Source: Octopus vulgaris
Lineage: Eukaryota
Direction of reading: 5' to 3'
Length of the DNA stretch: 64,000 bases
Assembly (NCBI GenBank): GCA_951406725.2
Contig: OX597826.1
Location: forward strand, 33,294,001 to 33,358,000
The position numbers and the translations under genes are program-made. The notes under the pieces were generated by a model that was not told where the DNA came from, did no database searches, and saw only the letters and a list, made by a program, of their open reading frames with translations. This document shows positions 1,016 through 64,000 of this stretch, in pieces (positions within the stretch are counted from its first letter, which is position 1; every line of letters starts with the position of its first letter).

Positions 1016-1419
1016 ACGAGAAAGAAGCAACAAGAATGGATTAGTTTTTAGTACAATTGTTTCATACAAAGACAGGCTTTATTACAAGTTGCAAAAATTG
1101 CAGCAGATAAAAGTGTCCTGTACTTATCAGCTAAAATACATATGAGTTCTCCAAACATCTTAGTGGGTGAGGTTATACTCATGAAATATTGGAGATAATT
1201 TCATTAAAGGCAGATATAGGTTGCAAACAGATTTCCAAAGTTCCTTAATGATGATGCACAGTCTTATCACAGAAAGAACTCATATGGAGAACTCATATGT
1301 ATTTTAGCTGATGAGTACAGGACACTTTTATCTGCTGCAATTTTGCAACTTGTAATAAAGCCTGTCTTTGTATGAAACAATTGTACTAAAAACTAATCAA
1401 TTCTTGTTGCTTCTTTCTC

Positions 1420-18178: not shown

Positions 18179-18775
18179 ATATACTTTATCAATAAAGCTG
18201 GAAAGACATCGCAAAAATTGTTACTCAGAGTTTCATGTTCCTGTTTGTTGGACAGTTTTGGTTGAGAATAGAACAAAAATAAGGTTACATGTACAATTGC
18301 AGCGTGGAAGGTGTTTATAAGCCATTTAAGAAACACACAAAAGCCGTTCGATTCACTTCAACATTTAAGTTTAATTTGTCAAAATATTTTCGTCGCTATA
18401 AGACCGCGACCTGTTCACTGACAAAAATCCGTGCTGCATCTCTTGCTATGCAGGTACATCTCCATAAAAGGTTACATGCATAAATATACAATTACATTGA
18501 TAAATACACATTTGAAATTGGTTTTGTTTCATTGGTCCTTTCAACTGACAGTCTTTTCAATAACTGGTTATATGAAATTAAAATTACGATTTAAATTATA
18601 TTATTTTAAATCATGATAATTTTTTTGTTGTATTCTCAACGAAAACTGTCTGTTACTCTGAGTAACAGCTTTTGTGAAGTCTTTGCAGCTTTATTAACAA
18701 AGTATATTTCCCTACCTCCGGTATTCAAGTACTATTTCTCTCACATTGCTTGACATTCATGTGCTTACTCTGGTA
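18179..18775. mobile_element. Degenerate inverted-repeat element with a nested second element (~18292-18467)
   Basis: Arms 18179-18231 / 18655-18707 and inner arms ~18254-18280 / 18621-18650; nested part matches 61091-61230. Confidence 0.7.
18375..18425 (-). ncRNA. Minimal type-I hammerhead-like ribozyme, G3-C8 core variant
   Basis: TTTGTCA-GTGAACA-G-GTCGC-GGTCTTATA-GCGAC-GAAAA-TA-TTT-TGACAAA. Confidence 0.65.
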
Positions 18776-23100: not shown

Positions 23101-23186
23101 TAACTCTGATGAGAGAAATATAGATGATTGTTATGGTAGGAATTAATTCGCCCATACCATCCTATATCTTCTCGAAATGGTCATTA
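23101..23186 (+). ncRNA. Hammerhead ribozyme-like fold with extended stem II and a weak stem I
   Basis: TAACT-CTGATGA-GAGAAATATAG...CTATATCTTCTC-GAAAT-G-GTC-ATTA, just after (TA)n. Confidence 0.6.
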
Positions 23187-38837: not shown

Positions 38838-38915
38838 GCGGTACATATGTTTCAGGCCTTTATTAGACGGATTTATAACAATGCATAATGTATGTCTGTG
38901 GCCTTCTTCAGCCGC
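38838..38915 (-). ncRNA. Type-I hammerhead ribozyme, canonical core
   Basis: GCGG-CTGAAGA-AGGCC...GGCCT-GAAAC-ATAT-GTA-CCGC. Confidence 0.8.
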
Positions 38916-40339: not shown

Positions 40340-40417
40340 GCGGCTGAAGAAGGCCACAGACATACATTATGCATTGTTATAAATCCGTCTAATAAAGGCC
40401 CGAAACATATGTACCGC
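40340..40417 (+). ncRNA. Type-I hammerhead ribozyme (mirror copy)
   Basis: GCGG-CTGAAGA-AGGCC...GGCCC-GAAAC-ATAT-GTA-CCGC. Confidence 0.72.
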
Positions 40418-60118: not shown

Positions 60119-60121
<3 letters not shown>

Positions 60122-61041
60122 ATAGAAATATTAAAATAACTAAGTCTCTCTAAAAGAGAACAGCGGCAGCGTTCCCGGAAAATAATAGTTATCGCCATAC
60201 TAATATGGCATTCTTATAAAAATAAGAAAAAAGCTGTCCGCTTATTAGCTCCATGAGGCCATCACCTTAAGTTAGCTATTTGATACACAAACTGTATCCA
60301 TATAACCTTCGAACAAGGGAGGTCAGTCGCTCCACACTACTTGACCGGCAGCTACAGACGCGTTTCGGGGTATTGCCCCTTTTCAATGCAGCGTAGCCAG
60401 CCAGTAGGTGTCGCTTCCGACAATCTCTGTTCGATGGTTTTATTTACCTAGTTTCGGTGGAATACATCCACTTGTTTTCAATAATAGAAATATTAAAATA
60501 ACTAAGTCTCTCTAAAAGAGAACAGCGGCAGCGTTCCCGGAAAATAATAGTTATCGCCATACTAATATGGCATTCTTATAAAAATAAGAAAAAAGCTGTC
60601 CGCTTATTAGCTCCATGAGGCTAATAAGCGGACAGCTTTTTTCTTATTTTTATAAGAATGCCATATTAGTATGGCGATAACTATTATTTTCCGGGAACGC
60701 TGCTGCTGTTCTCTTTTAGAGAGACTTAGTTATTTTAATATTTCTATTATTGAAAACAAGTGGATGTATTCCACCGAAACTAGGTAAATAAAACCATCGA
60801 ACAGAGATTGTCGGAAGCGACACCTACTGGCTGGCTACGCTGCATTGAAAAGGGCCAATACCCCGAAACGCGTCTGTAGCTGCCGGTCAAGTAGTGTGGA
60901 GCGACTGACCTCCCTTGTTCGAAGGTTATATGGATACAGTTTGTGTATCAAATAGCTAACTTAAGGCGATGGCCTCATGGAGCTAATAAGCGGACAGCTT
61001 TTGTCTTATTTTTATAAGAATGCCATATTAGTATGGCGATA

Positions 61042-61052
<11 letters not shown>
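60119..61052. mobile_element. Tandem + inverted PLE-type element: 362-bp period, 433-bp arms 60179-60611 / 60620-61052
   Basis: Unit start repeats at 60119 and 60481; fold-back with 8-nt loop; (TA)n flanks. Confidence 0.9.
60351..60392 (-). ncRNA. Minimal type-I hammerhead ribozyme, U3-A8 core variant
   Basis: GCTGCA-TTGAAAA-GGGG-CAATA-CCCC-GAAAC-GC-GTC-TGTAGC; mirror copy at 60839-60880 (+). Confidence 0.78.
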
Positions 61053-61090
<38 letters not shown>

Positions 61091-61091
<1 letters not shown>

Positions 61092-61426
61092 CAATTGCAG
61101 CGTGGAAGGTGTTTATGAGCCATTTAAGAAACACACAAAAGCCGTTCGATTCACTTCAACATTTGAGTTTAATTTGTCAAAATATTTTCGTCGCTAAAAT
61201 CCGCGACCTGTTCACTGACAAAAATCTGTGCTGCCGGATTTTTGTCAGTGAACAGGTCGCGGATTTTAGCGAGAAAATATTTTGACAAATTAAACTTAAA
61301 TGTTGAAGTGAATCGAACGGCTTTTGTGTGTTTCTTAAATGGCTCATAAACACCTTCCACGCTGCAATTGTTTTCATTACAGCACACGATCTCAGATCAG
61401 ATTACTTGCTATGCGAGTACATCTCC

Positions 61427-61428
<2 letters not shown>
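61091..61428. mobile_element. Palindromic element, ~137-bp arms spanning 61091-61371, plus a one-sided tail; (TA)n flanks
   Basis: Direct reading; same family as 18292-18467. Confidence 0.88.
61173..61222 (-). ncRNA. Minimal hammerhead-like ribozyme, G3-C8 variant
   Basis: TTTGTCA-GTGAACA-G-GTCGC-GGATTTTA-GCGAC-GAAAA-TA-TTT-TGACAAA; the mirror copy at 61241-61289 lacks one C. Confidence 0.65.
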
Positions 61429-61489
<61 letters not shown>

Positions 61490-61585: not shown

Positions 61586-62000
61586 TATATACTAGAAAAA
61601 TGGTCAAATTTTCCACAAGAATTTAGTTCAATTTGAAAACTCCACTAGAATGGACGAAAGCGCTAATACATGATATATGATATATGATATATAATGTATA
61701 AAAACATGTAATATACAAATAAATATCTGTAAATATAAAACCATCCGAATTTCTGAGTACCTTATTTCTTCTAATATAAAATACCTGCACATCATCTCCA
61801 AACCTTCTAATACATATATATATATATATATATATCATCATCCTCATCATCCTTTTAGCGTCCGTTCTCCATGCTAGCATGGGTTGGACGGTTCAACTGG
61901 GGTCTGTGAAGCTTGAAGGCTTCATCAGGCCCAGTCAGATCTGGCAGTGTTTCTACGGCTGGATGCCCTTCCTAACGCCAACCACTCCGTGAGTGTAGTG

Positions 62001-62711
62001 GGTGCTTTTTACGTGCCACCCGCACAGGTGCCAGACAGAGCTGGCAAACGGCCACGAACGGATGGTGCTTTTACGTGTCACCGGCACGGGGCCAGGCGAG
62101 GCTGGCAACGGACATGAACGGATGGTGCTTTTACGTGCCACCAACACGGGGGCCAGACAGAGCTGGCAAACGGCCATGAAACGGATGGTGCTTTTACGTG
62201 TCACCAGCACGGGGGCCAGGCGAGGCTGGCAACGGACACGAACGGATGGTGCTTTTACATGCCAACGACACGGGGGGCCAGACAGGGCTGGCAAACGGCC
62301 ACGAACGGATGGTGCTTTTACGTGTCACCGGCACGGGGGCCAGGCCAGGCTGGCAACGGACACGAATGGATGGTGCTTTTACATGTCACCGACATGGGGG
62401 CCAGACAGGGCTGGCAAACGGCCACGAACGGATGATGCTTTTACATGTCACCAACATGGGGGCCAGACAGGGCTGGCAAACGGCCACGAACGGATGGTGC
62501 TTTTACGTGTCACCGGCACGGGGGCCAGACAGAGCTGGCAAACGGCCACAAACGGATGGTGCTTTTACGTGTCACCGGCACGGGGGCCAGGCCAGGCTGG
62601 CAACGAACACAAACGGCTGGTGCTTTTACGTGCCACCGACACGGGGGCCAGACAGGGCTGGCAAACGGCTACGAACGGATGGTGCTTTTATGTGTCACCT
62701 GCACGGGGGCC
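62001..62711 (-). repeat. Tandem array of ~11.5 x 60-63-bp units in the RTE 3' UTR
   Basis: Units start at about 62001, 62064, 62124, 62187, 62248, 62311, 62372, 62434, 62496, 62558, 62619, 62681. Confidence 0.95.
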
Positions 62712-62759
62712 CTGATGTTGATCGACCTCAATTTGGTTTGATTTTGATTTTGACTGTTC

Positions 62760-64000
62760 TCACTGGTCTTGCCGGGTTTTCTCACGCACAGCAAACTTCC
62801 AAAGGTCTCGGTCACTGGTCATTTCCTTGGTGAGACCTAAAGTTCGAAGGTCGTGCTTCACCGCCTCGACCCAGGTTTTCCTGGGTCTACCTCTTCCACA
62901 GGTCCCCTCAACTGCCAGGGTGTGGCACTTTCGCACACAACTATCTTCAACCATTCTCATCACATGACCATACCAGCGCATACGTCTCTCTTGCACACAA
63001 CAACTGATGCTTCTTAGGTTCAACTTTTCTCTCAAGGTACTTACACTCTGTCGATTATGAACACTGATGTTACACATCCATCGGAGCATACTAGCTTCAT
63101 TTCTTGCGAGCTTACGCAAATCCTCAGCAGTCACAGCCCAAGTTTCACTACCATGTAGCATGGCTGTACGTACACATGCATCATACAGTCTGCCTTTTAC
63201 TTTGAGCGAGAGGCCTTTTGTCACCAGCAGGGGTAAGAGCTCTCTAAACTTTGCCCAGGCTATTCTTACTCTAGCAGTTATACTTTCAGCGCACCCGCCC
63301 CCGCTACTGACTTGGTCACCTAGGTAACGGAAACTATCAACTACTTCTAGCTTTTCTCCCTGGAAAGTGACGGAAGTTGGTCTCAGAGCATTTTCAGTGT
63401 TTATTGTTCCTGAGCATCTGCCACATACAAAAAACATCTTCCTAGTTAGCCTTCCTTTGACATTGCTGCACCTCTTATGTGTCCATAGCTTACACTTGGT
63501 GCATCTTATAGAGTTTCTACCTACACCTTTTCTACAGATCGAGCAGAGCCATCTACCTGAAGGCGTTTGTGATTGGTCTACCTTCCTACTTATTAGGACT
63601 TTGGTTTTGGCTAGGTTGATTCTAAGGCCCTTCGATTCTAAACCTTATTTCCATACCTGAAACTTCTCCTCTAGTTCTGATAGAGACTCAGCAATTAGAG
63701 CAAGGTCATCAGCATAGAGGAGCTCCCAGGGGCATCCTGTCTTGAATTCCTCCGTTATTGCCTGGAGGACTATGATAAATAGGAGGGGACTGAGGACTGA
63801 ACCTTGGTGGACCCCAACCTCTACCCTGAATTCTTCACTGTACTCGGTGCCAACCCTCACCTTACTAGCAGCGTCTCTGTACATGGCTTGTACAGCTTTC
63901 ACTAACCATTCATCTATCCCTAGTTTCCTCATTGACCACCAGATGAGGGATCGGGGGACCCTGTCAAAGGCTTTCTCCATATCAACAAAAGCCAGGTATA
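62760..64000 (-). pseudogene. RTE reverse transcriptase C-terminal half with inserted PHD-type finger; one nonsense codon
   Basis: EKAFDRVP, GVHQGSVLSPLLF, LLYADD, FRYLG, RWYGHV, RGRPRKTW; same frame throughout with a single TAA at 63645-63647. Confidence 0.93.

Follow-up and report, generated by a model that had tools for sequence, protein, structure and literature searches.

Covariation of the hammerhead 3-8 pair between families of Penelope-type elements in Octopus vulgaris, with a candidate natural G3-C8 variant

Hammerhead motifs in known mobile elements

The tertiary pair between positions 3 and 8 of the hammerhead core, C3-G8 in the consensus, has been settled by structure and by engineered swaps.

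Minimal type I hammerheads were described in the pseudo-LTRs of metazoan Penelope-like elements by Cervera and de la Pena in 2014 (PMC4209133). The motifs considered here lie in a 64,000-nucleotide stretch of Octopus vulgaris contig OX597826.1, referred to throughout as the window, and share with those hammerheads the type I topology, a U-rich 5' flank, an extra base between A9 and G10.1, the G10.1-C11.1 pair, a palindromic helix III, a position in terminal repeats and an arrangement as inverted motif pairs. The same paper reports a U3-A8 family in Schistosoma mansoni, with ~1,300 matches, and a UUGAAGA core is present in its alignment, while natural U3-A8 covariation was reported by Perreault et al. 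in 2011 (PMC3088659). U3-A8 in such elements is already published and is not new. What sets the window apart from the 2014 hammerheads is a G3-C8 core, accompanied by a bulged G where the published consensus has H. G3 is absent from the representative rows covered of Fig. S3 of PMC4209133 (whose legend gives 56), and the core-variant section of PMC3088659, which describes natural U3-A8 as found here, does not name a natural G3-C8.

The PAc Poseidon element of Anolis (PMC11167929) resembles the octopus elements in having a hammerhead near the ORF start, AT-rich targets and an uncut RNA template. Its tail is the segment between two reverse transcriptase (RT) start sites inside the ORF, an arrangement that the 3' ends of the G3-C8 copies match. 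In the Anolis Penelope system, insertion in vitro is independent of cleavage, and an engineered C3G/G8C change partly rescues cleavage of the hammerhead (PMC11167929). G3-C8 is thus an engineered control in PAc, whereas here it would be the natural state of a whole family.

Two further kinds of element provide points of comparison. Metazoan non-LTR retrozymes, which have been linked to Penelope-like elements, are built from non-coding tandem units, 150-450 nt long, each with a single type I hammerhead, as is one family in the window (PMC7229834; bioRxiv 10.64898/2026.07.22.740005); this family, with a 362-nt unit, differs from the published retrozymes in its U3-A8 core, inverted arm pairs and 60-nt tail, and it is known here from DNA copies and contigs. 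Penelope-like elements of the EN+ type form partial tandem and inverted 5'-truncated copies, with an optional tail and (TA)n targets (PMC8557442).

Natural G3-C8 was not found in the literature searched, a partial coverage that does not establish its absence from print. A scan of viral contigs gave at least 121 G3-C8 loci, 23 of which have a stem II among those listed, and none is a convincing full hammerhead. Fixation of G3-C8 in an autonomous Penelope-like lineage would accordingly appear to be a new variant, carried by elements that are themselves of well-known kinds.

Hammerheads and insertions of the window

The host genome is 2.8 Gb in size and rich in microsatellites. Our descriptor required stems I and II, GAA and a helix III complementary to itself, with no constraint on positions 3, 7, 8 and 17. 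Applied to the window and 60 evenly spaced 10-kb loci (664 kb together), it returned 22 matches, seven of them inside the window, against none in the reversed sequence. Nineteen of the 22 are Watson-Crick at 3-8, the states being 10 C3-G8, 6 U3-A8, 3 G3-C8, 1 C3·A8 and 2 A3·A8. A larger set, drawn from 1.96 Mb of loci that were partly targeted, holds 130 matches against 0 in the control. No hammerhead family appears among the 150 of 246 Rfam matches listed, and the Rfam miRNA matches in the window are microsatellite or hairpin artefacts.

The cores singled out by the initial annotation are present at 60351-60392 (-) and 60839-60880 (+), with U3-A8, and at 61173-61222 (-) and 18375-18425 (-), with G3-C8. 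At these four sites U4 G5 A6, A9, G12 A13 A14, A15.1-U16.1 and H17 are all present; the consensus C3-G8 is absent, replaced by U3-A8 or G3-C8 with Watson-Crick geometry kept. Minimum free energy (MFE) folds place stems I and II on either side of the core at both kinds of site, with fold z-scores of -2.5 and -1.5 for G3-C8 and of -2.0 and -0.9 for U3-A8, and helix III is a very short palindrome of the dimer type (AAUAUU and ACGCGU, respectively). The two U3-A8 sites come from one insertion, as its two arms, and both G3-C8 sites from one family, so the number of independent events in the window is smaller than the number of sites.

The C3-G8 cores reported at 1308 and 40344 likewise fall within hammerheads, both with a long stem II: 1302-1391 (+), whose inverted partner at 1046-1136 (-) is C3·A8, and 40340-40417 (+), which has a mismatch at the base of stem II and an inverted partner at 38838-38915 (-). 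The statement that every core sits in a full frame of stems I, II and III applies to the four U3-A8 and G3-C8 sites above and fails at two others. The motif at 23106-23180 (+) is degenerate, a C3-G8 core and long stem II without palindromic helix III or stem I, and the hammerhead-like U3-A8 motif of a third family at 61633-61665 (+) has a stem I of only 2 bp, a mismatch at the base of stem II and a fold z of +0.34. Elsewhere in the window, GC-rich tandem units of ~50-60 nt at 1-241 and ~61960-62830 are part of a common repeat, and 62763-63644 (-) is a LINE-like frame of 294 codons with a PHD-finger match (E 8e-5) below the cut-off.

The U3-A8 hammerheads belong to a single insertion, 60119-61052, made of two inverted arms with 99% complementarity over 433 nt, a 362-nt period and flanking (TA)n. 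The left arm (60119-60621, -) contains 1.4 monomers, unit positions 222-362 followed by 1-362, and at its end extends 60 nt beyond the right arm as a tail. The right arm (60614-61052, +) contains 1.2 monomers and ends at unit position 302; both abut (TA)n. The left hammerhead pairs U3 (60386) with A8 (60381), with a predicted cut 3' of C17 (60357), and the right one U3 (60845) with A8 (60850), with a predicted cut 3' of C17 (60874). Both have a stem I of 6 bp plus a distal stem, a stem II of 3 or 4 bp (a G-to-C change at 60855 cuts it to 3 bp in the right copy), helix III ACGCGU and C17.

The motif occurs once per 362-nt unit. Genome-wide, its pattern has 1,085 matches against 0 in the control, many of them 362 nt apart, and 99 of the first 100 are U3-A8; the best genomic copies are 99% identical. 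Judged from these copies, the tandem family is young and retrozyme-like, its unit being non-coding, within the 150-450 nt range of non-LTR retrozymes and supplied with one hammerhead. Across 32 loci, some overlapping, arms end at unit position ~300 or ~360 and in most cases exceed one monomer, which suggests a circular or multimeric template. Contigs show head-to-tail joints of the unit, and the genomic tandems carry such joints too. These features fit a non-LTR retrozyme copied by a Penelope-type RT. U3-A8 is retained in relatives with altered stems, one with 86% identity (L186) and one in which stems I, II and III all carry paired changes (L261); an old copy (L130) is U3·G8.

The G3-C8 motifs belong to a neighbouring 5'-truncated Penelope-like insertion, 61090-61429. 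Its left arm (61090-61234, -) is a terminal repeat without tail that abuts (TA)n and carries the minimal type I hammerhead at 61173-61222, with G3 at 61215, C8 at 61210, a bulged G and a predicted cut 3' of U17 (61180). The right arm (61241-61429, +) is a terminal repeat plus a tail of 55-58 nt. It contains a second hammerhead copy at 61241-61289 (+), with G3 at 61248 and C8 at 61253, in which a one-base deletion removes C11.1; the initial annotation had overlooked this copy, as well as the nature of the motifs as Penelope-type terminal repeats. Another terminal-repeat copy, 18293-18441 (-), contains the hammerhead at 18375-18425, with G3 at 18418 and C8 at 18413. The hammerheads at 61173-61222 and 18375-18425 have a stem I of 7 bp, one bulged G, a stem II of 5 bp, helix III AAUAUU and U17. 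With positions 3 and 8 left free, the family pattern has 7,447 matches in the genome against 2 in the control, and 92 of the first 100 are G3-C8. Standard CUGANGA descriptors do miss these variants, as had been predicted, at a cost of ~7,400 plus 2,500 motif copies in the genome.

Traced through the sequence upstream, the parent element has an ORF with a terminal GIY-YIG domain, whose stop codon lies ~1.1 kb 5' of the motif. In a tandem copy (L282), the motif stands ~55 nt ahead of a start codon from which the frame runs into the same protein; this order of motif, start codon and open frame places the motif in a 5' UTR and makes the tail the start of the ORF. In the window, 61339-61428 (+), which includes the tail, corresponds to the first 30 codons of the RT/GIY-YIG ORF.

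The ORF region was scored at 40 genomic places with 93-100% identity, and the longest open frame has 1,025 codons (L279), of which the first ~30 derive from an inversion junction. A 530-aa piece matches the Pfam GIY-YIG domain (PF01541, E 9e-5) and gave no RVT_1 match. A YVDD motif is present in the ORF sequence, which has 251 homologues at E<=1e-20; homologues are named as RT-domain proteins, and the best named match is an octopus protein. The family thus has the single ORF with RT and C-terminal GIY-YIG of EN+ elements, a hammerhead within the terminal repeat, and their partial tandem and inverted 5'-truncated copies, optional tail and (TA)n targets. Six long-ORF loci have 10 adjacent motifs, every one of them G3-C8. 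On sequence grounds, the G3-C8 motif is the hammerhead in the terminal repeats of a Penelope-like element that is autonomous. In contigs from four runs, assigned to organisms A-D that may not be four species, variants of position 3 or 8 stay below 3%, contigs being prone to drop rare variants.

Two other accounts of this motif were ruled out. The 283-bp palindrome at 61090-61372 is not a MITE, since its junctions vary between copies, its arms are unequal in length and the repeat unit runs on into the RT ORF. Coding constraint does not explain the core, given that the reading frame of the ATG just upstream closes within ~22 codons and that the ORF begins only after the motif. As separate observations, a different RT/GIY-YIG fragment is joined before the 3' region of the G3-C8 element at L183:3163-4971, with the break inside the endonuclease, likely a template switch between two Penelope-like families. 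The fragment resembles another Penelope-like element with GIY-YIG at L121:4560-6182 (-), which ends in (TA)n and has a decayed C3-G8 hammerhead ~430 nt behind its stop codon.

Positions 3 and 8 within and between families

We tallied the majority state at 3-8 for each of 19 families in 1.96 Mb of fetched loci. C-G is the majority in 14, U-A in four (one of them, L294, a 1:1 tie of two copies) and G-C in one. Fisher's exact test gives p 9e-5, or 5e-3 after relatives are merged and a counter-example is added, values that are descriptive because the families share ancestry. In this comparison of sequences, covariation between families holds. Within families there is none: positions 3 and 8 decay independently. 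Such decay is expected of dead copies, so that the tabulation over all genomic copies proposed in the initial annotation tests little, and the unit to be compared is the family master.

Among 79 double-changed matches, C3-G8 accounts for 19; twelve of these were compared, and none belongs to the G3-C8 family. The fourth Watson-Crick state, A3-U8, has eight matches, as two transitions would give; the two copies fetched (L152, L153) come from different subfamilies, and these copies are likely to be independent double transitions. Within the G3-C8 family, changes at the subfamily level fall in loop II (4/8 sites) and the flanks, with 0/22 in the 3' half of the motif. Since most of the compared copies were selected by a core pattern, the conservation of the 5' half cannot count as independent evidence.

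An older family with 250 matches is related to the G3-C8 family, having an identical stem I, the bulged G and the same loop positions. Its first 100 matches include 80 C3-G8 and 0 G3-C8, and stem II differs by a compensated change, GUCAC/GUGAC in the C3-G8 family versus GUCGC/GCGAC in the G3-C8 family. Outside the motif, the C3-G8 family shows modest homology (z>=3 in 5/12 copies tested), and a second older family has no copy with z>=3 there. A divergent relative (L162) already has C8. Among the families compared, G3-C8 is, as far as these sequences tell, a single event.

The family of the motif at 61633, with 1,406 matches, is mostly U3-A8, and its stem I is 2 bp in all four contexts seen. 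It includes a U3·G8 subfamily amplified to ~100 copies, which accounts for 90 of the first 100 non-A8 matches (116 in all), with C3-G8 in 3 of that first 100. This subfamily is possibly a natural wobble intermediate. In a separate common repeat (L255, ~930-970), the core reads CCGACGA while stem II and GAAACGU are preserved, which may reflect a U4C variant or decay.

RNA template and the role of the core

The U3-A8 and G3-C8 insertions of the window are built alike, with two inverted arms in (TA)n and 3' ends at two fixed points ~60 nt apart. For the G3-C8 family we aligned 56 arms, 40 of which had been chosen for having the core. Their 3' ends are bimodal (23/56 and 32/56, in groups ~58 nt apart), and their 5' ends lie 51-62 nt (25 arms) or 41-44 nt (12 arms) before the predicted cut. 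A single arm of the 56, 40 of them core-selected, starts at the cut itself. We infer that the genomic copies of this family come from uncut RNA, and with insertions copied in that way, mobility is no proof of catalysis.

The 5' ends also cluster at AGATG, ~57 nt before the predicted cut (L282:4690-4760 and other copies), and the sequence upstream of AGATG resembles a branch point plus YAG acceptor (423 exact matches). An extra G stands ahead of AGATG in 15 of 22 such copies, where the element itself has C or T (49/49); this G is possibly a copied cap, in which case AGATG would mark a start site.

In our view, U3-A8 and G3-C8 probably both retain the 3-8 pair of the active site and support slow cutting, either as dimers or with the assistance of a protein. 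The two cores would be compensatory swaps that preserve the tertiary pair at the ends of Penelope-type elements. The palindromic helix III would make monomers poor cutters, and dimerisation through it, or a protein of the element, would assist slow self-cleavage. The RT of the element would start at two internal RNA sites, producing the two arms, and the template of the 362-nt family would be a circular or multimeric RNA, such as an active ribozyme would generate. The G3-C8 lineage would have a single origin in a C3-G8 ancestor that carried U17, so that G3 could form only a wobble with position 17 and would not be trapped in a Watson-Crick pair; U17 may thus have permitted the swap. For engineered G3-C8, higher activity with G17 than with C17 is reported in PMC3884650 (as data not shown), in line with a 3-17 trap. 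In the MFE fold, G3 and U17 form an additional, eighth pair of stem I, and this pair, the U3·G8 subfamily, the U3·G8 state of the old copy L130 and the single origin of G3-C8 count against our reading, as do the modest homology of the related C3-G8 family, the single arm that starts at the cut and the cleavage-independent insertion of the published Penelope system.

The argument of the initial annotation, that different Watson-Crick pairs in separate families point to selection for catalysis, is partly borne out, by the covariation between families, and weakened by the single G3-C8 event. Strict selection is further opposed by the motifs at 61633 and 23106, which have no full stem I, by the amplification of U3·G8 and by copying from uncut RNA.

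These same facts would be explained if G3-C8 were a dead or near-dead relic, two drift changes that match by luck, with only U3-A8 functional and reached by two transitions through a U·G wobble. A single event, copies from uncut RNA and an amplified subfamily with a mismatch are what such a relic would leave; insertion in vitro that does not depend on cleavage (PMC11167929) and a bulged G in place of the published H (PMC4209133) agree with it. We nevertheless find this unlikely, because loop II and the flanks have changed whereas the rest of the core, all three helices and the palindrome of helix III have stayed intact, because independent decay predicts G3-C8 in ~0.1% of C3-G8-family copies, whose first 100 contain none, and because L162 shows C8 in a divergent relative.

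Less likely still is conservation of the fold for a function other than catalysis (protein binding, RT loading or translation control in the 5' UTR), with the swap damping cutting so that capped mRNA survives and G3·U17 extending stem I: the motif's place downstream of the inferred transcript start and upstream of the ORF, the G3-U17 pair of the MFE fold and the cap-like extra G would suit it, but a Watson-Crick 3-8 pair is expected only under selection on the active-site fold, one change would silence the motif more simply, and the extra G may come from the partner arm in inversions (5/10 in non-inverted copies, p 0.02).

Returning to slow cleavage by cores that keep the 3-8 pair, a more specific form of this reading is possible, if on balance doubtful. 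An active G3-C8 may have become fixed in a recently mobile, autonomous lineage of Penelope-like elements, reached from C3-G8 by way of an inactive intermediate and permitted by U17, with C-G, U-A, U·G and G-C each present in hundreds to thousands of copies in a single animal genome and a slow core sparing the capped, uncut transcript to serve as both mRNA and template.

A natural swap by transversion, if true, would be comparative proof of the 3-8 pair; U3-A8, for which two easy transitions suffice, falls short of full proof of this kind. It would speak as well to whether selection maintains cutting by the hammerheads of Penelope-like elements: the passage of a lineage through an inactive intermediate to a restored pair suggests that it does.
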